Shown piece by piece: positions 2,030 through 56,499 of a stretch of DNA of 64,000 bases. The notes beneath the pieces are model-generated. The model worked only from the letters and a program-made list of their open reading frames with translations, was not told the DNA's origin and ran no database searches. Both the position numbers and the translations under genes were made by a program. Position 1 is the stretch's first letter, and each line of letters opens with the position of its first letter. This DNA comes from a phage. The stretch is from the NCBI GenBank assembly GCA_020241125.1, contig GCA_020241125.1_4708.1; one strand, 5' to 3'.

Positions 2030-3616
2030 TTAGAAGTTGCCTTTGGTAGTTACCGCATCCACCAGGTTAAACAAATCAACGCTCAGCTTATACACCTCCT
2101 GCTGGCTACGGTTGAGCAGCGGGCTGTATGCGGATGGGTTGATGTTCGGCATGGTGTACGGAATCGGTGCAGAGCCGTCAACGCTGATCTTGAACTGGCT
2201 GTCCAGGAACAGGTTAATCGCGCCGCTCACCATAACCGCATTCGGGTTGTTACCCAACATGGAGGGTAGGATATTGGTAATCATGTCAGAACGCATTTGT
2301 TCAGCAGCACGGTTACAATCGTATCCTTTAATGAACGGTACAGCGTCGGTAACCGCAACCGCCCACTGACCAGGCATGATACCGAGTTCTGGGTGACCAT
2401 GGTTGTCAGCAATGAAACGGAACGACTCCAACATGCGATACGTCATCGCAGCAGGCATCATTGCAGCAAGCGATGAGCAATACAGCGTTGGATAATCGAT
2501 CACGTCCCAGCTCTGGCTGTCGGTCGGCATCCAACCAAACTCGGTGGTTGCTGATGTACCACGACGAGCTTCCACATACGGGAATAACGTTAAGACGTCA
2601 CGGATATGTTCACCGAACATCCGTTTCATGTCAGCCCAACTCAGGCTACCGCTGAAAGCGAACCCTTCATCACGCATAATCGCACCGAATACCGGATGTG
2701 CAACCAGCGGTTCTTCACGAACAGCTTGAGCGGCTTCTACGTAAATATCCTCGTTCTCTGCGCTACCTGGATGAGACCCGCTTTCGTACGTCTGACGAAT
2801 AGCGCCAACATTATCGAAGGCTTTTCTCAGATAGATGGTTGGGATGTTCGTATCAGCACTAGCGGGTTTGATTTTCTCTGTTGCGAAACACATTGCTGCT
2901 TCCACACCACGGAAAACCGGTTCCGGTTGCGGTGGGTAGGATGTACGATGAACCACATCAGCGTAGGCTGGATCGAACTGTTGCATCACGTTCTGCATGG
3001 CTGGGTCCATGAACTGGTTATCAAAACCACCATTACCTACCCAACGTGCTGTTGATGCATAGGTCAGCGTATCCTGAACACGAGTACTGAACTGAACATC
3101 ACGATTAACGGGGTCGTATGCGCCGGTCAACAGGTTCGTTGCGTCCATCGGGGTTGCACGAACAATTTGCTTACCGAACATGTCCGTTGTGGTTGTTTCG
3201 GTTACCTGGATTACGTTCGTGAAGAAGAACACCAGTTCGTTCGGCAGATCGATAGCGCGCGTTGTAAACGCATCGAGGCTTACAGAATGGTCGGTGTATC
3301 CAGAAATGTAATGGACACGCTTGGTTCCTGGTGCGAGGGCCAAGGATTCTTCTACCGCCATCATGAAATGGAAACGACGTGTGCCCCAACCATTCGCAAT
3401 CTCCGAAACCCCCTCAGGTTCTGCAGACTGCTGCAACAAACCGGTTGCAAGCTTATTGATTGCTGATGGTGTTGTTGCCGTACCGAACCGCGTCGTGTTA
3501 ATGAAGTCTTCGATGCTACGCATGCTATCTGCGTGGAATCGTAGTGGACGACGTTGTACGTTGTTATACGGTGCGGTTTCAACCATCAGTATTTCACGAA
3601 CATTCATCGGGATCAT
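2030..3616 (-). CDS. hypothetical protein
   Basis: 528 aa track ORF; AAGAGGAAA upstream; start lies 1 nt after the stop of the upstream gene. Confidence 0.6.
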   Translation of the reverse strand: MIPMNVREILMVETAPYNNVQRRPLRFHADSMRSIEDFINTTRFGTATTPSAINKLATGLLQQSAEPEGVSEIANGWGTRRFHFMMAVEESLALAPGTKRVHYISGYTDHSVSLDAFTTRAIDLPNELVFFFTNVIQVTETTTTDMFGKQIVRATPMDATNLLTGAYDPVNRDVQFSTRVQDTLTYASTARWVGNGGFDNQFMDPAMQNVMQQFDPAYADVVHRTSYPPQPEPVFRGVEAAMCFATEKIKPASADTNIPTIYLRKAFDNVGAIRQTYESGSHPGSAENEDIYVEAAQAVREEPLVAHPVFGAIMRDEGFAFSGSLSWADMKRMFGEHIRDVLTLFPYVEARRGTSATTEFGWMPTDSQSWDVIDYPTLYCSSLAAMMPAAMTYRMLESFRFIADNHGHPELGIMPGQWAVAVTDAVPFIKGYDCNRAAEQMRSDMITNILPSMLGNNPNAVMVSGAINLFLDSQFKISVDGSAPIPYTMPNINPSAYSPLLNRSQQEVYKLSVDLFNLVDAVTTKGNF

Positions 3617-5254: not shown

Positions 5255-5295
5255 CACAAAGGTAATATAAGCGTGAATAATTTTGGATTCCGGCT
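5255..5295 (-). promoter_or_regulatory. early-promoter-like motif, copy A
   Basis: Plus-strand AGGTAATATAAGCGTGAATAATTTTGG; minus-strand reads TATATTACC after an A/T-rich block. Confidence 0.4.
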
Positions 5296-9922: not shown

Positions 9923-9971
9923 CAAAAATAAAAAAGAATGGGCAGCCCCTCCCCACCCGAAGGTAGGGAGA
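9923..9971 (-). terminator. intrinsic terminator with UUCG tetraloop
   Basis: Minus-strand RNA folds CUCCCUACC-UUCG-GGUGGGGAG (9 bp), followed by a U-run (UUCUUUUUUAUUUUU). Confidence 0.5.
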
Positions 9972-9985
9972 GACCGCAAATATAC

Positions 9986-10535: not shown

Positions 10536-10572
10536 TCACTTAAGTAATATAGCCGTGAAAAATGTTGGATTA
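10536..10572 (-). promoter_or_regulatory. early-promoter-like motif, copy B
   Basis: Plus-strand TAAGTAATATAGCCGTGAAAAATGTTGG; minus-strand TATATTAC core about 95 nt upstream of the 10450 start. Confidence 0.45.
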
Positions 10573-11406
10573 ACGTGTTCTCCTATCACGATGCGTATAC
10601 GACTGAAGACCGATGTCCATATGCGGTAACGTCAGCGTCTGCCAGATCTGTCGTGCGTAGCGATCGAGCGTATGATCGTCAGTAACACAATCGACGGGTT
10701 CGATGAGGTGGGTCGTATACTGGCTTTTCTCAGAGAAAGGTTCGATGTTAGCTGTATCGCCTAATCCGCTTTTCACGGTGAAGACAAGACGTGTGACGAT
10801 CATCGCCTTATGCTGCTGTTCATTATAACGAAGGCTGCGGTATACGGCATAGCTTCCTCCCTTTAAGCTTCGGGTATAACGAAGGTCGGAGGTCGTCTCG
10901 GAAATCTGATACAGCATCCAGTCCAACGTATCACGCCAGTACGCATCATCCACATCAGGAACTGTAATACCATACCGCGTAGGTAGCAGTTCTAAAAGCA
11001 ATTTATAAAGTCCGCGACGCAGACCATGCTCTTCTGTTTCCGATAAACCGTTTCCAACGTAACGTGAAATACGTGTACGTAAATACGTACGGATGAACAT
11101 ATTCGCCATCAGTGTTTTCACTCTGCTACTGGTATCCTCAAAGCGATCAACGCTGAAACTCGTTTCAATCAGCCGTCCATTAAAATACAATGCGGCAACA
11201 TACATCGCGTTATTGCTATCACGTTCAATGTTTAAACGACCGCAGATATTAGCCGCGTCGTTCATGGTAAATTCTAATTTATCGTGTTCGATACGATAGA
11301 TAATATCCTCTTGGGTTGCCAGGCTCGCAATGCGACGGTAGCCCGGAGAAGTACGTTTTACACTCATGATTGTCCTCGTTTTCAATTTTAAGATTGCATG
11401 CGGCAT
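10570..11406 (-). CDS. hypothetical protein
   Basis: 278 aa track ORF; TTTATGCCG element and hairpin upstream. Confidence 0.5.
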   Translation of the reverse strand: MPHAILKLKTRTIMSVKRTSPGYRRIASLATQEDIIYRIEHDKLEFTMNDAANICGRLNIERDSNNAMYVAALYFNGRLIETSFSVDRFEDTSSRVKTLMANMFIRTYLRTRISRYVGNGLSETEEHGLRRGLYKLLLELLPTRYGITVPDVDDAYWRDTLDWMLYQISETTSDLRYTRSLKGGSYAVYRSLRYNEQQHKAMIVTRLVFTVKSGLGDTANIEPFSEKSQYTTHLIEPVDCVTDDHTLDRYARQIWQTLTLPHMDIGLQSYTHRDRRTR

Positions 11407-11409
11407 AAA
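11395..11409 (-). promoter_or_regulatory. TATGCCG element downstream of hairpin
   Basis: Minus-strand TTTATGCCGCATG about 45 nt upstream of the 11406 ATG. Confidence 0.3.
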
Positions 11410-11434
11410 CCCTCCCCGCCTTATGCGGGGAGGG
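11410..11434 (-). terminator. stem-loop terminator
   Basis: Perfect 10 bp stem CCCTCCCCGC / GCGGGGAGGG with 5 nt loop; short U-run after it on the minus strand. Confidence 0.5.
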
Positions 11435-11449
11435 CAGCCATTAAATGGA

Positions 11450-14039: not shown

Positions 14040-15935
14040 TTAGAACAGGTTGAATGCCCCACCCATGTTGTTAACGCCAACATTCGGACGATCGCTACGT
14101 GCGTAGATGTTACCGGAGATGTTACCCAGACCACGAGCACGTGCTGCCATGTTACCACGAACAGCGGTACCTGCCAGATGCTGGATGTTCTCAGGACGGA
14201 TGGTGAAGCCAGCATCAGCAGCGGCCTCGATCAGCGCCTGCAGTGCTAACGGATCGAAGTCGTAACGCATTGCCCAGCCGGTTTGTTCCCAGCTACCAGA
14301 CAGAACACGATCAATGATTTCGTGACGAGCGACAACACGCTGAGACATCGTCATATCGGTACGGTCGAAGCTGTCTTCCCAAGCTTCTACGGTATCCGGG
14401 TTAGTGATGTTCATCATGTACAGATCGTCCATATCACGAATATCGTGACGGTGACCATCCTGGTGGTTATAATGACCCAGCGGGATACGGTTACCGGTAG
14501 CGTAGACCAGTGGTGCGCCGTACTGATATTTCTTGCTGAAGCAACCCAGGGTAGTATCATCGAAGGCACGGAAGAGTGCTTTGTAACCTTCGGAGATTTC
14601 CCGGACTTCACCTTCAACTTTGCCCGTATAGATCTTCTCAGCCGCCGGGATCATACGCAGCAGCCAGCTGTATTCGCCTTCTTCCGGTACGTCGATAGAA
14701 ATCAGCAGAGACGGATACAGTACCTGTTGCAGGAACTTGTAAATCTGCTCGTTGGTTTGAGTAGACAGATCCAGCGGTGCGGTAACTTCCGGATCCAGTA
14801 CCATCGCCAGAGCACCCGGGTTATGCGGACCAATACCACGAGCAGCGTTGCTGATTAAAGACTGTGCCCACGCCATACCGCTGTTCAGCGTAGCGATGGT
14901 GCCAATCAGACCCAACACGAAAGTGTTCGGCGTGAACGCATCCAGCTCCAGCGGGTAAGCGCTGGTCATCACGTAACGCGGTTGGTATTGTACAGTCGGC
15001 GGTACCGGATAACCGTTAACCAGAACAGGGCCTTGGTTGAAGGTCGGGTTCTGCGGGCTGTAGGTCAGGTCAATGTAACCGGTGGTTGCGACCAGACGCT
15101 GCTGACTATCGTAATCGCTCATCGCTTGACGGATGCGGTTAGAGATAGTTACAGTGATGTCAGAACGCACAGGGTTACCAACAATATCGCTGTCCTGCAT
15201 ACCGCTGGTGTTGTACTGAACGCTGCTGATTGGCTGATCGCTTGCCATCATGCCCAGGTTGAACTGCGGCAGACCCAGTTTATCGCCGAGACGGATTTCG
15301 ATCGCGGTTTGGATTGCGTTATCTGCAGCAGACAGCAGGGTGGTTGCCAGATGCGCAGATTCAGCGGTGATTTCATTGGTCACCACAGCCAGACCAGCGA
15401 TACGAGCAGTACCATTAGACTTACCACCGATAGCTGCATACATTGCCGCCATGACTTCGTTGATGAACGTACCGTTCAGGTTATCAACCCAGGTACGCGG
15501 CACCAGAATGTTACCATGCGGGCCTTGTTCTTCACGACGCGGCAGCGGAGCCAAACCGGCAACCAGTGGAAGCACATAACCGAAGAAGTGGTTATGGTCA
15601 CCAACTTTTGCACCGCTCATAACAACCAGGGTCGGATACGGTACACTGTATTGGTTAGGATCGACGGTCACCATGATGAAGTCGTCTTTGAATCCTTTAT
15701 CTTCCAGTTCTTTTTCCATCAGACGACGGAGATTCAGTACCTGCTCGGAGCCAGTATTACGGCTAATACGACGGCTCAGTGTACGGTTGATCGTACGCAT
15801 CGTATGAGTTACTTTAGGCTGGCCAGCAAAATCTGCAGCGGTTTCCAGCGCCTCATCAGCACGTTGTGCGGTGCGGGTTTCAGCTGCACGAATTTCTACA
15901 TTATCGTTACCGTTATTACGTACGTCTAAGCCCAT
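14040..15935 (-). CDS. hypothetical protein; candidate phage-nucleus shell protein (chimallin-like)
   Basis: 631 aa; AGAGGA RBS; early-promoter-like motif C upstream; sits directly upstream of the beta-prime gene, the arrangement recalled for phiKZ gp54-gp55. No sequence motif verified. Confidence 0.4.
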   Translation of the reverse strand: MGLDVRNNGNDNVEIRAAETRTAQRADEALETAADFAGQPKVTHTMRTINRTLSRRISRNTGSEQVLNLRRLMEKELEDKGFKDDFIMVTVDPNQYSVPYPTLVVMSGAKVGDHNHFFGYVLPLVAGLAPLPRREEQGPHGNILVPRTWVDNLNGTFINEVMAAMYAAIGGKSNGTARIAGLAVVTNEITAESAHLATTLLSAADNAIQTAIEIRLGDKLGLPQFNLGMMASDQPISSVQYNTSGMQDSDIVGNPVRSDITVTISNRIRQAMSDYDSQQRLVATTGYIDLTYSPQNPTFNQGPVLVNGYPVPPTVQYQPRYVMTSAYPLELDAFTPNTFVLGLIGTIATLNSGMAWAQSLISNAARGIGPHNPGALAMVLDPEVTAPLDLSTQTNEQIYKFLQQVLYPSLLISIDVPEEGEYSWLLRMIPAAEKIYTGKVEGEVREISEGYKALFRAFDDTTLGCFSKKYQYGAPLVYATGNRIPLGHYNHQDGHRHDIRDMDDLYMMNITNPDTVEAWEDSFDRTDMTMSQRVVARHEIIDRVLSGSWEQTGWAMRYDFDPLALQALIEAAADAGFTIRPENIQHLAGTAVRGNMAARARGLGNISGNIYARSDRPNVGVNNMGGAFNLF

Positions 15936-16000: not shown

Positions 16001-16045
16001 CACCTAGGTAATATAACCCTGAAATTTTTTTCAATATTGGTGTAA
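16001..16045 (-). promoter_or_regulatory. early-promoter-like motif, copy C
   Basis: Plus-strand CACCTAGGTAATATAACCCTGAAATTTTTTTCAATATTGG; minus-strand TATATTACC about 70 nt upstream of the 15935 start. Confidence 0.5.
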
Positions 16046-19562: not shown

Positions 19563-19578
19563 AGGACGGCATAAAAAA
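19563..19578 (-). promoter_or_regulatory. TATGCCG element downstream of terminator
   Basis: Minus-strand CTTTTTTATGCCGTCC about 55 nt upstream of the 19504 ATG. Confidence 0.3.
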
Positions 19579-19607
19579 GAACCGATCCAGCCGAAGCCAG
19601 ATCGGTT
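19579..19607 (-). terminator. intrinsic terminator with UUCG tetraloop
   Basis: Minus-strand AACCGAUCUGGC-UUCG-GCUGGAUCGGUU (12 bp incl. 2 G-U pairs) then CUUUUUU. Confidence 0.6.
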
Positions 19608-19643
19608 AAAAAGGATAATAACTGACAGAAAGATATCGATGAT

Positions 19644-19745
19644 GTTCGTGAAACAAGATCTTCTCTCGTGTACAATGATGCTAGATCAGAGGGAGGTTGT
19701 AACACGAGAGGTGGTCCGCCAAAGAAGGAATAAAAAACACGAACC
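19644..19745 (-). ncRNA. structured intergenic RNA element of unknown function
   Basis: Nested inverted repeats: outer GTTCGTG / CACGAAC (19644-19650 with 19739-19745), inner CTCTCGTGT / ACACGAGAG (19664-19672 with 19703-19711) around a 30 nt loop whose minus-strand RNA contains CCUCCCUC. Confidence 0.3.
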
Positions 19746-19803
19746 TATCTTATTTCACTGATGGCACTAACCACTCAAAATATATAGTACCGTATGTAAA
19801 AGT

Positions 19804-23610: not shown

Positions 23611-23623
23611 TACACGGCATAAA
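23611..23623 (-). promoter_or_regulatory. TATGCCG element downstream of terminator
   Basis: Minus-strand TTTTATGCCGTG about 20 nt upstream of the 23601 ATG. Confidence 0.3.
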
Positions 23624-23645
23624 AGCCTGCCCCGAAGGACAGGCT
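23624..23645 (-). terminator. intrinsic terminator with UUCG tetraloop
   Basis: Minus-strand AGCCUGUCC-UUCG-GGGCAGGCU (9 bp incl. one G-U) followed by UUUUAUG. Confidence 0.55.
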
Positions 23646-23654
23646 CGATAGAAC

Positions 23655-30637: not shown

Positions 30638-30742
30638 TGCATTGCCTTCCGCGAGTGTAATCAGGAAGGTAATGTAGGTTTATTTTAATCTCCATTTCGC
30701 GATGATATGACAGTCTTTATTACGTTTACCATCTGAGGGAGC

Positions 30743-31987: not shown

Positions 31988-32139
31988 CAATGTAACGGTA
32001 AAACTTTACTGACGTTGGTTATTATTTGAAGCATAGGGCTTCACCCAGGAGTACCATCCCTTTAAGTCGTTTGTCCTCTCCTGGTTAACTGTCGTTCTCT
32101 CACAGTGCTCGACAGACCAAAAATGCTCAGGCCTCATAG

Positions 32140-32168
32140 CCTCCTCTGGGAATGGAACCCAGAGGAGG
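32140..32168. terminator. bidirectional stem-loop terminator between convergent genes
   Basis: Perfect 11 bp stem CCTCCTCTGGG / CCCAGAGGAGG with 7 nt loop. Confidence 0.55.
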
Positions 32169-32180
32169 ACTATGTTTGCC

Positions 32181-40125: not shown

Positions 40126-40142
40126 TTTATTACGGCATATAA
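40126..40142 (-). promoter_or_regulatory. TATGCCG element
   Basis: Minus-strand TTATATGCCGTAATAAAGG just upstream of the 40115 ATG. Confidence 0.3.
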
Positions 40143-40190
40143 GAAAACGGGTTAAGCACACAGATTTACGCATAATTGTAATATTTTACG

Positions 40191-40203
40191 TTATGCCTAT
40201 GAC
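40191..40203 (+). promoter_or_regulatory. TATG-type promoter-like element upstream of tail-sheath candidate
   Basis: Plus-strand TTATGCCTATGAC about 60 nt upstream of the 40259 ATG; second TATG (AATTATGTCATAC) about 35 nt upstream. Confidence 0.3.
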
Positions 40204-40258
40204 ATTGTGTCACGTGTGCAATTATGTCATACAATTTCCTTAAATTAAGGAGAGTTCC

Positions 40259-43263: not shown

Positions 43264-43300
43264 CCTTCCTTCCCCGGCCTTGACGGCTAGGGAAGGAAGG
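43264..43300. terminator. bidirectional intrinsic terminator
   Basis: 11 bp stem CCTTCCTTCCC / GGGAAGGAAGG with inner GCC/GGC; A10 run upstream and TTTATGGTTTATTT downstream. Confidence 0.7.
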
Positions 43301-43312
43301 TTTATGGTTTAT

Positions 43313-43852: not shown

Positions 43853-44313
43853 TACTCAAACTCCTTATTCCAAAACTCGATTAATGAATCGAGCTGTTCC
43901 TTACTGGTTATCTCACCTCCCCTAACAAAATGAAATCGTTCTTGAATGGCGATCTTTTCAAGGATATCGGTAAGCAAATGACGGTGACAGAAATTTCCTG
44001 CAGGACAATAACACCCTAACACCACAACCGGATGGGAGAATAAAGCCAACCATTCCGGTGTATGATCAACAAAGCTTTTGCGCATAAGCGCGTAGTAGCC
44101 TATGGTATATTCATCCTCGGTTAACGTTTTTGATTTGATTCCTGTAACAAGTTCCCATGAAGGTGCGAAGAGTGGGTTACCTGTTTTCACCGTCGTGTCC
44201 AGTAGAAACGCTCGTGTGTCTGAAAGCCAACGATATTTGGCTAATTGAAGGGTGTATAAAAACACAGCGCTAACCCCAAAGGATAAAAAATAAAACCTTG
44301 ACATAACCACCAC
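43852..44313 (-). CDS. hypothetical protein
   Basis: 153 aa track ORF with hydrophobic N-terminal stretch; start uncertain. Confidence 0.45.
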   Translation of the reverse strand: MVVMSRFYFLSFGVSAVFLYTLQLAKYRWLSDTRAFLLDTTVKTGNPLFAPSWELVTGIKSKTLTEDEYTIGYYALMRKSFVDHTPEWLALFSHPVVVLGCYCPAGNFCHRHLLTDILEKIAIQERFHFVRGGEITSKEQLDSLIEFWNKEFE

Positions 44314-44369
44314 CGCAACCCCATACAGGGCTACGGTGGGGTCATACAGAGAGACGTGTTAAGTTACAA

Positions 44370-44964: not shown

Positions 44965-45010
44965 TCAGTTAGGTAATATAGACCTCAACTTTTTTCCAAT
45001 AATACTGCAA
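44965..45010 (-). promoter_or_regulatory. early-promoter-like motif, copy D
   Basis: Plus-strand GTTAGGTAATATAGACCTCAACTTTTTTCCAATAATACTG; minus-strand TATATTACC about 120 nt upstream of the 44849 start. Confidence 0.45.
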
Positions 45011-45870: not shown

Positions 45871-45885
45871 ATGACGGCATAAAAA
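45871..45885 (-). promoter_or_regulatory. TATGCCG element downstream of terminator
   Basis: Minus-strand ACTTTTTATGCCGTCA about 90 nt upstream of the 45785 ATG. Confidence 0.3.
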
Positions 45886-45887
45886 GT

Positions 45888-45915
45888 ACCTCCTTACCCA
45901 CATGGGTAAGGAGGT
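45888..45915 (-). terminator. intrinsic terminator
   Basis: 12 bp perfect stem ACCTCCTTACCC / GGGTAAGGAGGT with 4 nt loop; U-run follows on minus strand. Confidence 0.6.
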
Positions 45916-54607: not shown

Positions 54608-56254
54608 TTAGGCTCCACGAGGTCCCGTTAAGTTGCGTAATAGGAACGCAACCGTATCGTAACCAATATCGATGTTGAATTTATTTTTACCACTTACCCA
54701 GAAAGCTCGCTTCTTGTGCGAGTTGGTAATTTCGTCAATAGCTTCCATGGAATAAAGAACGTTAACCGAGACCGTATCACCATCAAAGTCCCCACCAAGT
54801 CCGGCGAGGTATGGCGCAGGGACAATAGTCGTTTCTACGAACGAAGCATTAGGTAACCAGTCGGGGTATTCCCATGCGATAAATCGTTCATCCGTTATTG
54901 GTTCCCAGTTACTATCCAGTTCGGTTTTCGGTTTTGCGGCGACGGTTGTACGTGCGTAACAGGTTAACGGGATAACGGATTGCATACCTGATACCGGATA
55001 ACGTGTTACCATCGCAGCCAGGTTATTCCAGTACTTATATCCGGCAATATAGATAAGCTCGGTGTAAGTAATGGGGTGAACATCCGCGCCAGGTTTATTC
55101 AACATCTCCGGGGGTAATTCACTCATGTCACGGAATAACCGAAACGAATCGTTGTTCACATAGACGAGGCAAAGATATCGTCCATTGACCATGATAGGCT
55201 CGTTACGCACGCCAGGATCGCTTAAGGTGTTCAGTAAACGTTCTATTCCGTCCCATGTTGTAAAGTCATCGATGGTGTCTGGATCAAGCGTGACGCGCTC
55301 ACGTTCCATCGTTTCGGTATCAATAAGTTCAACTTCTGTAACATCACGGACAAATATTTCCTGCAAAATACCTGTACGTAACGCATGTTGCGTTACTGGG
55401 AGAGCGGCTTTACTCATCTGGTATAACCCTAACTGAACCGCGGTACAGGAAGGCTGGTTAGGCGACCCTAATACCTCCGTTGTGGGGTTAATTGCCGAAA
55501 TAACGTTACGGGTTGAGTTCCAAACGCGACGTGAACCAAACTTACCTTGGAAGATCCCTTTCTTACCCTGGAACATATCCAACAGTAAAGCGTAGATATC
55601 GTTGAATGTTCTCTGTAAGCTCCAGCGCTGGCCGTCGTAAACGGGATCGGAATAATCTTTTAATCCATCAGGGACGGTGTTAGAAATTGCAAGGAAACGA
55701 CGATACAACTCCGTGATTTCTTGCTCGCTTTCATACCCACCTTCTTTTACTTCTATTTCACGTAAGCCTGCAGGCAATACCAGTAAGTGACGGGTCATCG
55801 CTTTGAACATGTTCTCTTCGACAACTTTAATTCGTAGCTCTCGTTGAGCTGAACCCGTTGAAACGAACTTGATATCCGCGACGTGTTGTGCAAAGAACCC
55901 GTATCCTGTTTGTCCTGTTAATGCATCAGACGCAACGAAGTCGCGTTGTTCGGGATCCCACCGAGCGTACGCCTTCCCCGACATGATATCGCCATAGAGG
56001 TGTTTTAATCGAATGAGACGGTCGTAAATGACAGGATGCAGGATTTCAACCTTGCATTCAATCACCGCAAATCGACGGTCTCGATCTTCACTACCCGCAC
56101 TACCAAAGATGGTGTAAGAATAGAAACCATCATCGTGGAAATTACCGGTGCTTGGGTCACGAATGCTCATGCTCGTGATCTTGGGGAGAAAACGTAACTG
56201 CTGTTTATCGAGGTGTAAAATACTAATATTAAACGGCTCTCTGACTTTAGCCAT
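54608..56254 (-). CDS. virion-type RNA polymerase beta-prime-like subunit, N-terminal fragment
   Basis: Track ORF 54608-56296; likely start at Met 15 with AAGAGGAG. Motifs LLVLPAGLREI (VLPPDLRP), ITELYRRF (DLNDLYRR), GGDFDGDTVSVNVLYSMEA (NADFDGDQMAVH). Confidence 0.7.
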   Translation of the reverse strand: MAKVREPFNISILHLDKQQLRFLPKITSMSIRDPSTGNFHDDGFYSYTIFGSAGSEDRDRRFAVIECKVEILHPVIYDRLIRLKHLYGDIMSGKAYARWDPEQRDFVASDALTGQTGYGFFAQHVADIKFVSTGSAQRELRIKVVEENMFKAMTRHLLVLPAGLREIEVKEGGYESEQEITELYRRFLAISNTVPDGLKDYSDPVYDGQRWSLQRTFNDIYALLLDMFQGKKGIFQGKFGSRRVWNSTRNVISAINPTTEVLGSPNQPSCTAVQLGLYQMSKAALPVTQHALRTGILQEIFVRDVTEVELIDTETMERERVTLDPDTIDDFTTWDGIERLLNTLSDPGVRNEPIMVNGRYLCLVYVNNDSFRLFRDMSELPPEMLNKPGADVHPITYTELIYIAGYKYWNNLAAMVTRYPVSGMQSVIPLTCYARTTVAAKPKTELDSNWEPITDERFIAWEYPDWLPNASFVETTIVPAPYLAGLGGDFDGDTVSVNVLYSMEAIDEITNSHKKRAFWVSGKNKFNIDIGYDTVAFLLRNLTGPRGA

Positions 56255-56499
56255 GGAGACACTCCTCTTTACCACCACCGGCTGCGGCGGTATCATCTGA
56301 ACACACGAGAGACGTAATGGGTGATGGCGTCACCCATCGCTTCCTTGCTTGAGGCGAGGAAGTTATTAGGTTACGTACCTGCCTGATTTTATCAGGTGGG
56401 CGATGTGTGAAGTTACGCTTCAACATTATCAATGCCGAAGGTAAACTTCGTGCATCACGTTCCAACGTAACATGGGAACGTATCGAACTGGAGGTATAC

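Follow-up and report, generated by a model that had tools for sequence, protein, structure and literature searches.

Introduction

On the minus strand, which carries most of the genes of a 64-kb stretch of phage DNA (64,000 nucleotides, here termed the window), several intergenic hairpins are followed by a short U-run and then by a conserved sequence of the type TATGCCG(T). The question raised by this arrangement is whether that sequence, which is real, forms part of the terminator suggested by the hairpin, or whether it represents a signal of its own, either a promoter or a processing site coupled to the terminator, as had been proposed in a preliminary description of the same DNA.

The window shares 98.2% identity with Escherichia phage vB_EcoM_Goslar, a member of the Chimalliviridae with a genome of 237 kb. 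This nucleus-forming jumbo phage infects E. coli and possesses its own multisubunit RNA polymerases. Goslar encodes RNA polymerase subunits of the phiKZ type and, according to its annotation, genes for several RNA polymerase subunits, chimallin and PhuZ are found in or adjoining the window, the region also being annotated for DNA polymerase, terminase and tail sheath. The host genome of these hairpins is, in short, that of a chimallivirus whose multisubunit RNA polymerases comprise a virion and a non-virion type. The whole Goslar genome was assembled for the analysis, and the 247 annotated coding sequences that were checked make up 92.9% of it, leaving 7.1% as intergenic DNA. No other phage of the collection examined has a DNA polymerase more than 36% identical to that of Goslar, and the relatives of the window in IMG/VR are only copies with 99-100% identity; the comparison of orthologous sites was made, given the distance of the next relatives, between the window and Goslar.

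Hairpins and Tails in the Window

The minus-strand RNA had been described as forming hairpins closed by a UUCG loop, with G-U pairs that confer strand specificity, and this part of the description is sound. Three such hairpins exist (9942-9977, 19580-19607 and 23623-23646), and folding of both strands showed that all three are far more stable on the minus strand. Hairpin B (19580-19607, minus) has a 12-bp stem, a C(UUCG)G loop and two G-U pairs, and reads AACCGATCTGGC-TTCG-GCTGGATCGGTT followed by CTTTTTTATGCCGT. It is located 3' of the gp243 homologue, 69 nt ahead of the start codon of the DNA polymerase gene, folds at -18.3 kcal/mol (z -6.2) on the minus strand versus -13.0 on the plus strand, and its counterpart in Goslar carries the annotation of a putative terminator. 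The tail of B (19566-19579, minus), CTTTTTTATGCCGT, consists of a U-run and then TTATGCCGT. Hairpin C (23623-23646, minus), equally with a UUCG loop, lies 3' of the gp235 homologue, with the start codon of gp236 only 20 nt downstream; it folds at -18.0 versus -11.4 kcal/mol, corresponds to an annotated terminator in Goslar and is followed by the tail TTATGCCGT (23614-23622, minus). The third UUCG hairpin, F (9942-9977, minus), has a 16-bp stem and folds at -31.3 versus -14.3 kcal/mol, and its tail (9923-9941, minus), CCATTCTTTTTTATTTTTG, is a variant that contains TTAT and lacks the G.

Two additional minus-strand hairpins, A and D, fold nearly equally well on either strand. Hairpin A (11410-11435), of the CCCTCCCC...GGGGAGGG type and with a folding energy of -25 kcal/mol, is placed 3' of the gp184 homologue, and its tail, TTTATGCCGC (11400-11409, minus), includes an ATG (11404-11406) that serves as the GenBank start of gp183. 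Hairpin D (45888-45915) is found 3' of the homologue of the head maturation protease gene and continues into the tail ACTTTTTATGCCGT (45874-45887, minus), gp213 following 97 nt on. The set is extended by three putative terminators. G (32130-32180, both strands) is a bidirectional palindrome, with its hairpin at 32140-32168, between the convergent gp224 and gp223 homologues, and is flanked by CTATG on the minus strand and by ACTATG on the plus strand. H (43264-43312, plus), at the convergent junction after the gp217 homologue, is a 37-nt hairpin followed by TTTATGG, with TTAATATGC plus a T-run on its minus strand, while I (44296-44339, minus) consists of a hairpin at 44310-44339 and then TGGTTATGTC. 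The GC-rich hairpin and U-run of a canonical Rho-independent terminator are present at the window sites, the U-tract comprising five to six U before AU in B and D and only UUUAU or UUUUAU in A and C. All the sites are intergenic and on the gene strand, with G and H at convergent junctions, which is the location of terminators of the phiKZ type.

The statement that a hairpin or gene end is followed by TTT(T)ATGCCG(T) at five sites was confirmed for four of them, where a strong minus-strand hairpin precedes TT(T)ATGCCG(T/C) (UUUAUGCCG). The fifth copy, TTATATGCCGT (40132-40142, minus), is situated between divergent genes, 24 nt ahead of gp219, and is the sole intergenic TATGCCG of the window that is not preceded by a hairpin; rather than a terminator, it may be a candidate late promoter or a chance match. 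In the same region, the plus strand contains GTTATGCCTATG ahead of the tail sheath gene (40190-40201). The 10-mer CGGCATAAAA occurs exactly at 19567, 23615 and 45875 (three copies against 0.18 expected, a number reached in none of 100 shuffles); position 11401 reads CGGCATAAA, and 40133, the copy without a hairpin, reads CGGCATATA. The distance to the next minus-strand start codon, previously given as 20-90 nt, is 20, 24, 69 and 97 nt at four sites (from the T of TATG, in Goslar coordinates). At 11401 the motif is indeed present, its own ATG being the GenBank start of gp183.

The abundance of shorter forms of the motif is, by itself, unremarkable. TATGCCG occurs 12 times window-wide against 7.7 expected, that is, with no overall enrichment, and five of the 12 copies are intergenic, all of them on the gene strand and four directly 3' of a strong hairpin. 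Likewise, TTATKYYGT alone is not enriched window-wide (11 copies versus 6.3 expected), and thus the signal resides in the position after hairpins and not in the raw count. A generic scan for promoters and terminators retrieved a number of sites no higher than in shuffles. As for the possibility that the motif might be equally common inside coding regions, 16 of the 37 TATGCCG copies of the whole Goslar genome fall within the 7.1% that is intergenic, and 14 of these 16 lie 3' of hairpins of -15 to -30 kcal/mol.

When the window is compared with Goslar, the five motif copies are identical, and changes are seen within the hairpins. The inner parts of hairpins H (43264-43300) and I (44310-44339) are inverted (reverse-complemented) between the two phages, the loop of hairpin D (45888-45915) is inverted while its stem is kept, and hairpin F (9942-9977) shows one change from U-G to C-G. 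Pairing is preserved through the inversions and the U-G to C-G change, and the flanking TTATG is unchanged in each case.

Distribution in the Goslar Genome

The association between hairpins and the motif was evaluated across Goslar by taking every intergenic position on both strands, selecting those preceded by 36 nt able to form a strong hairpin whose end is no more than 7 nt away, and ranking the 4-mers found there. This intergenic per-position test replaced a statistic that included hairpins of coding regions, which was dominated by noise and gave no signal. TATG turned out to be the top 4-mer after strong hairpins (56 of 214 positions versus a background of 5.7%, p = 4e-22), the overlapping TTAT and ATGC being the next ones. 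The 56 sites represent about 40 hairpins, many of them palindromes flanked by CATA at one side and by TATG at the opposite one, and in these hairpin plus TATG is present on both strands. In 41 of the 56 sites the G of TATG is placed 5-7 nt past the last paired base, and the bases after TATG are, at most hairpin sites, C, Y, G and T.

This extension distinguishes the hairpin sites from other occurrences of TATG. YYG follows TATG at 25 of the 56 hairpin sites versus 13 of 117 hairpin-less intergenic ones (p = 2e-6), and at 12% of the remaining TATG, nearly all of which are coding. The hairpin-less intergenic TATG show neither flank conservation nor the CCGT extension, and little orientation bias (65 sense versus 52 antisense). 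Since YYG is rare at these sites, the extension is a property of the hairpin context and not of gene starts, which argues against a free-standing promoter motif. Intergenic TATGCC(G), for its part, is almost always tied to a hairpin.

The orientation of the sites bears on the notion of a promoter in a similar way. In the window every copy points to a gene that it could express. Genome-wide this is no longer so: although 30 of the 56 sites are at tandem junctions, 17 are at convergent gene ends and six on the antisense side of tandem-junction hairpins, and from such convergent and antisense copies a promoter would yield only antisense RNA. Even for the complete motif, three TATGCCG copies (after gp007, gp172 and gp187) face into a converging gene, and at the gp007/gp008 junction the opposite strand, too, presents a hairpin followed by TTTTTATGCGC. 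On the other hand, YYG occurs more often at tandem junctions (19 of 30) than at convergent ones (6 of 18, p = 0.07), a tandem excess that leaves some room for a role connected with the downstream gene, and it was found in none of the seven antisense or other non-sense-strand sites.

Several Goslar terminators recur almost unchanged. Outside the window, near-identical palindromic families of the form CCCTCCTCC-AACCCGTAAGGG-AAGGAGGAGGG are found at six Goslar loci at least (for instance, 27744/27780, 48141, 63711/63749, 71988/72024, 224379/224418 and 237243/237279), and hairpin C (23623-23646) has a second, identical copy at Goslar 3506-3529. This recurrence of near-identical terminators, together with the duplicate of hairpin C, suggests cassette duplication or recombination. 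The PeSL cassettes (promoter-early stem-loop repeats) of T4-type phages, described by Arbiol and coworkers in 2010, reportedly combine a sigma-70 early promoter with a stem-loop and would drive gene shuffling. They resemble the Goslar families in being repeated intergenic stem-loop modules and differ from them in the sigma-70 early promoter joined to the stem-loop, which is a PeSL feature.

Relationship with the Terminators of Other Phages

A precedent for these modules is provided by phiKZ. Putzeys et al. (2024, Microlife) determined the transcript ends of this phage by ONT-cappable-seq and reported that most of its predicted intrinsic terminators share a motif, present at 61 mapped 3' ends, 5'-BCCYCCCCHWWDGGGRRGGBYTTATKYYGT-3', which represents a stem-loop followed by a TTAT region. 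For 201phi2-1, a motif A (n = 59) with a strong resemblance to that of phiKZ was described, and eight terminators, selected so as to represent several motifs, were without exception functional in vivo when placed in reporters in uninfected cells (Microb Biotechnol 2024). The tail of the phiKZ pattern, YTTATKYYGT, recurs in the window: in B, C and D the tail is TTATGCCGT, which fits TTATKYYGT exactly, and in A it is TTATGCCGC, which matches at eight of nine positions. The stems are less uniform, since the C-rich 5' arm and G-rich 3' arm of phiKZ are recognizable in A and partly in C, while B and D have other stem sequences. A search of the window for the fixed 30-nt phiKZ pattern, allowing up to three mismatches, gave no match, because stem and loop lengths differ. 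A covariance model based on 12 phiKZ terminators, with an alignment that left out two stems because their polarity was opposite, was applied to the 64-kb window, where A was the best hit (20.8 bits, E = 0.009) and C the second (E = 0.36); B and D, both devoid of the C-rich/G-rich stem sequence, were not scored in this search.

The 4-mer test was extended to other genomes. In 50 kb of phiKZ, TATG again took the first rank (21 of 461 positions; p = 4e-13), many sites showing it on the two strands, and in 30 kb of Erwinia phage RAY TTAT was first and TATG second, with five of the nine hairpin-TATG sites reading TTATGCCG. As a control, 50 kb of T4, a phage that uses the host polymerase, showed no enrichment of TATG. 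The signature formed by a hairpin and TTATG(YYGT) is thereby extended to a third and a fourth genus, those of Goslar (Goslarvirus) and of RAY. Such a spread over genera argues for a functional link between the tail and the phage polymerases, and against a peculiarity of a single genome.

The Goslar modules, then, share with those of phiKZ and 201phi2-1 a GC-rich hairpin directly followed by TTAT-K-YY-GT, a position after gene ends and a frequently palindromic, bidirectional character. With phiKZ they also share the family, the same kind of phage-encoded multisubunit RNA polymerases and TATG as the top hairpin-associated 4-mer. They differ in that Goslar belongs to another genus and infects E. 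coli, that the stems are longer and more varied, B and D lacking CCYCCCC/GGGRRGG, and that in the tail GCCG is dominant and more uniform in Goslar, while phiKZ has mostly GTCG, GTTG or GCTG. With regard to canonical Rho-independent terminators, the GC-rich hairpin, the stable tetraloop and the U-rich tail are common features, release being expected 7-9 nt past the stem, and several 201phi2-1 terminators do function with the host polymerase (Microb Biotechnol 2024). In contrast to the canonical type, the U-tract of Goslar is short and interrupted (UUAU) and is followed by a conserved G-YY-GU.

RNA Ends Mapped in phiKZ

Since TATG is also the core of a known promoter, the positions of RNA ends at such tails are of particular interest. 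The late promoter of the phiKZ non-virion RNA polymerase (Yakunina et al. 2015; de Martin Garrido et al. 2026) is 5'-TATG-3', T(-3)ATG(+1), a core that proved necessary in vitro, and the beta-like subunit GP123 binds TATG on the non-template strand. The end tables of the bioRxiv supplement of Putzeys et al. were used for 119 of 149 starts (P008-P126) and about 43 of 133 ends, with true genome coordinates in the region retrieved. Within that set of about 43 ends, mapped with a resolution of approximately 2 nt, the 3' ends of T046, T051, T057, T059, T060 and T065 fall between -1 and +2 nt from the G, at TTTTATG[C] (T046), TTATGT[C] (T051), TTTATGT[T] (T057), ATTA[T]G (T059), TTATGA[C] (T060) and TTATG[T] (T065), the bracketed base marking the end. 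In the variants without G contained in this part of the tables, the 3' ends are at the T of TTAT. Because the phiKZ 3' ends map at it, UAUG can be considered the release point, with the proviso that 3' ends from long reads do not by themselves separate termination from processing.

The starts tell a different story. None of the 119 tabulated starts coincides with a terminator's own TATG, which is where the 3' ends map instead. Twelve of these 119 have a terminator within 50 nt upstream, and all 12 are located 5-42 nt past the terminator's TTAT(G), either at a second TATG (P049, P054, P075 and P078) or at a promoter of the early or middle class (P017, P023, P028, P034 and P099). The nearest ones in this part of the tables, 5 and 10 nt downstream of the terminator's TATG, are at a second TATG. 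As the starts sit beyond the terminator TATG, the arrangement of a terminator and then a promoter is real in this family, the promoter being a separate element. The window tails resemble the phiKZ late promoters in having the same TATG with A/T-rich DNA upstream. They are unlike them in two respects, since late promoters described so far function without a hairpin and lack base conservation 3' of TATG; furthermore, in the start-site tables between P008 and P126, late promoters tend to read CTATG and not TTTATG. The word "TATG" is absent from the main text of the phiKZ transcriptome paper, and an overlap between terminator tail and late-promoter TATG is not discussed in the consulted parts of either terminator paper (phiKZ and 201phi2-1).

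Interpretation and Alternatives

These observations are best integrated by considering that the hairpins and their tails are probably intrinsic terminators of the chimallivirus type, in which UUAUG-CCGU constitutes the conserved end of the terminator and not a separate promoter. The basis for this is given by the sequence and structure of the modules, their genomic distribution, their conservation across four genera and the 3' ends mapped in phiKZ, and Goslar transcripts would, by homology, terminate at these exact sites. Terminators of this kind have already been published for phiKZ and 201phi2-1, while for Goslar no earlier description was found in the literature; the map now comprises about 40 signature hairpins genome-wide, nine of them in the window. 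The proposal that GCCG is a promoter or processing signal coupled to the terminator was not sustained, in view of the match with the tail of the phiKZ motif, the convergent and antisense sites, the tie between YYG and hairpins, the phiKZ 3' ends and the lack of starts on the terminator TATG among the 119 tabulated.

Multisubunit RNA polymerases have a consensus pause position, with a pyrimidine at the RNA 3' end and then a G. The terminator module comprises a GC-rich hairpin, whose loop is frequently UUCG or GNRA, then a brief U-rich stretch that ends in UUAU|G, and finally YYGU. The nascent hairpin would fold behind the polymerase, the transcript would be let go at or just past UAUG, leaving a tail of about 5-9 nt after the stem, and GCCG(T) would be the DNA immediately ahead of the release point, acting as a part of the termination signal. 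A pause at U-G would give the hairpin time to act on the short U-tract, and the tail may well be conserved as such a pause position, helping a U-tract that is short. The terminator tail holds the TATG core of the late promoter, which bears on how these polymerases stop and start. A bolder, and rather improbable, extension is that both share TATG since one polymerase pocket reads both: the pocket beneath the beta-lobe (GP123 in phiKZ) that binds the non-template TATG at initiation would bind it again when the active site reaches the G, and this would pause the enzyme 5-9 nt past the hairpin, where a short U-tract would then suffice for release. Should this be the case, TTATG-YYGT would be a polymerase-specific termination signal that has co-evolved with the chimallivirus RNA polymerases across genera.

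The alternative that fares best, a sharpened version of the earlier proposal, is that the terminator overlaps a late promoter, the non-virion polymerase restarting at the G of TATG so that the next transcript begins with GCCGU. The need for T(-3)ATG(+1) in phiKZ late promoters and its binding on the non-template strand agree with this, as does the T-run upstream, which would melt easily, and the window copies, 20-97 nt before start codons, would leave leaders of sensible length. The 12 tabulated phiKZ starts with a terminator close upstream, and the hairpin-less copy with its opposite-strand TTATGCC, both located where gp219 and the tail sheath gene diverge, could be viewed in the same light. 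The strongest points are the excess of YYG at tandem junctions and site C, where the 20 nt up to the start codon leave no space for any other promoter, so that gp236 needs either read-through or a start at the TATG of site C; mainly on account of these two, an overlapping promoter retains a small share of the probability. Against it stand the phiKZ starts and ends, the antisense RNA expected from many copies, the hairpin-less TATG devoid of a CCGT extension and of any marked orientation bias, and the absence of conservation 3' of TATG in known late promoters; in addition, the gene that follows site B, coding for the DNA polymerase, does not belong to the late class. Overall, it is deemed unlikely.

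Much less likely is that the hairpin and its AU-rich tail represent an RNA processing signal, either a cleavage site or a protective 3' structure for a ribonuclease of the host or the phage. Stable UUCG hairpins protect RNA 3' ends, and the long-read 3' ends of phiKZ are equally compatible with termination and with processing. However, the eight 201phi2-1 terminators, some with these conserved motifs, terminated in reporters in uninfected cells, the geometry, with a GC-rich stem and then 5-9 nt of U-rich tail, corresponds to intrinsic termination, and no ribonuclease recognition motif is evident. Finally, that the GGGAGGG 3' arm acts as a Shine-Dalgarno sequence for the tail ATG, which would open a gene or a Met-Pro leader peptide, is hardly credible in spite of a plausible GGAGG-ATG spacing and of the GenBank starts of gp183, gp111, gp047 and gp167 at such ATGs, given that the Shine-Dalgarno-like bases are paired within the stem, that gp183 and gp111 have an in-frame ATG with its own ribosome-binding site downstream, that nucleotide-level conservation extends to the T after CCG and that the motif is also present on antisense strands.

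As for peptides encoded from the tail, a reading as mini-ORFs was rejected, the frames from the motif ATG having a median of 13.5 codons, variable length and no similarity past Met-Pro. In gp183, the in-frame ATG with its own ribosome-binding site is located about 39 nt past the motif ATG (11404-11406); outside the window, the annotated starts of Goslar gp111, gp047 and gp167 also sit on a terminator-tail ATG after a GGGAGGG arm. The GenBank starts of gp183 and gp111 are probably miscalled, because of the in-frame ATG and ribosome-binding site that follow, and gp167 (31 aa) may not be a gene. Altogether, four Goslar start codons on a terminator ATG are flagged here as probably miscalled.

Additional Elements of the Region

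Two Goslar insertions, of 1445 bp and 2044 bp, are absent from the window phage (at about 12.0-12.9 kb and 54.6-54.8 kb). In Goslar they are annotated as group I introns with the HNH-type endonuclease genes gp186 and gp206, and their host genes are two RNA polymerase subunit genes. The window gene at 54608-56296 is uninterrupted, with a single frame of 562 aa, and a search of the window against Rfam at gathering thresholds gave no matches, with no intron seen.

Between the gp243 homologue and hairpin B, about 200 nt (19608-19803, minus) contain no convincing reading frame and fold at -67 kcal/mol (z -4.9 versus shuffles), including a long-range helix; this segment could represent either a small RNA or a structured 3' UTR ending at terminator B. 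The segment from which gp219 and the tail sheath gene diverge (40143-40258) contains AAAATATTAC, similar to the phiKZ middle-promoter element AAanTTACc, together with several TATG on either strand, one of them (GCCTATG) preceding the tail sheath gene; judged from their sequence, these elements are candidate middle or late promoters. Lastly, a pattern formed by an A/T-run and then CA(C/G)G(G/C)TATATTAC(C/T)T, close to the early (virion polymerase) promoters of phiKZ, ...TTTAAGATCTATATTAC, has five matches against 1.6 expected. These candidate early promoters, all on the minus strand, are at 5260-5270, 10542-10552, 16006-16016, 30667-30677 and 44971-44981, and one copy lies upstream of the chimallin gene (14040-15935).
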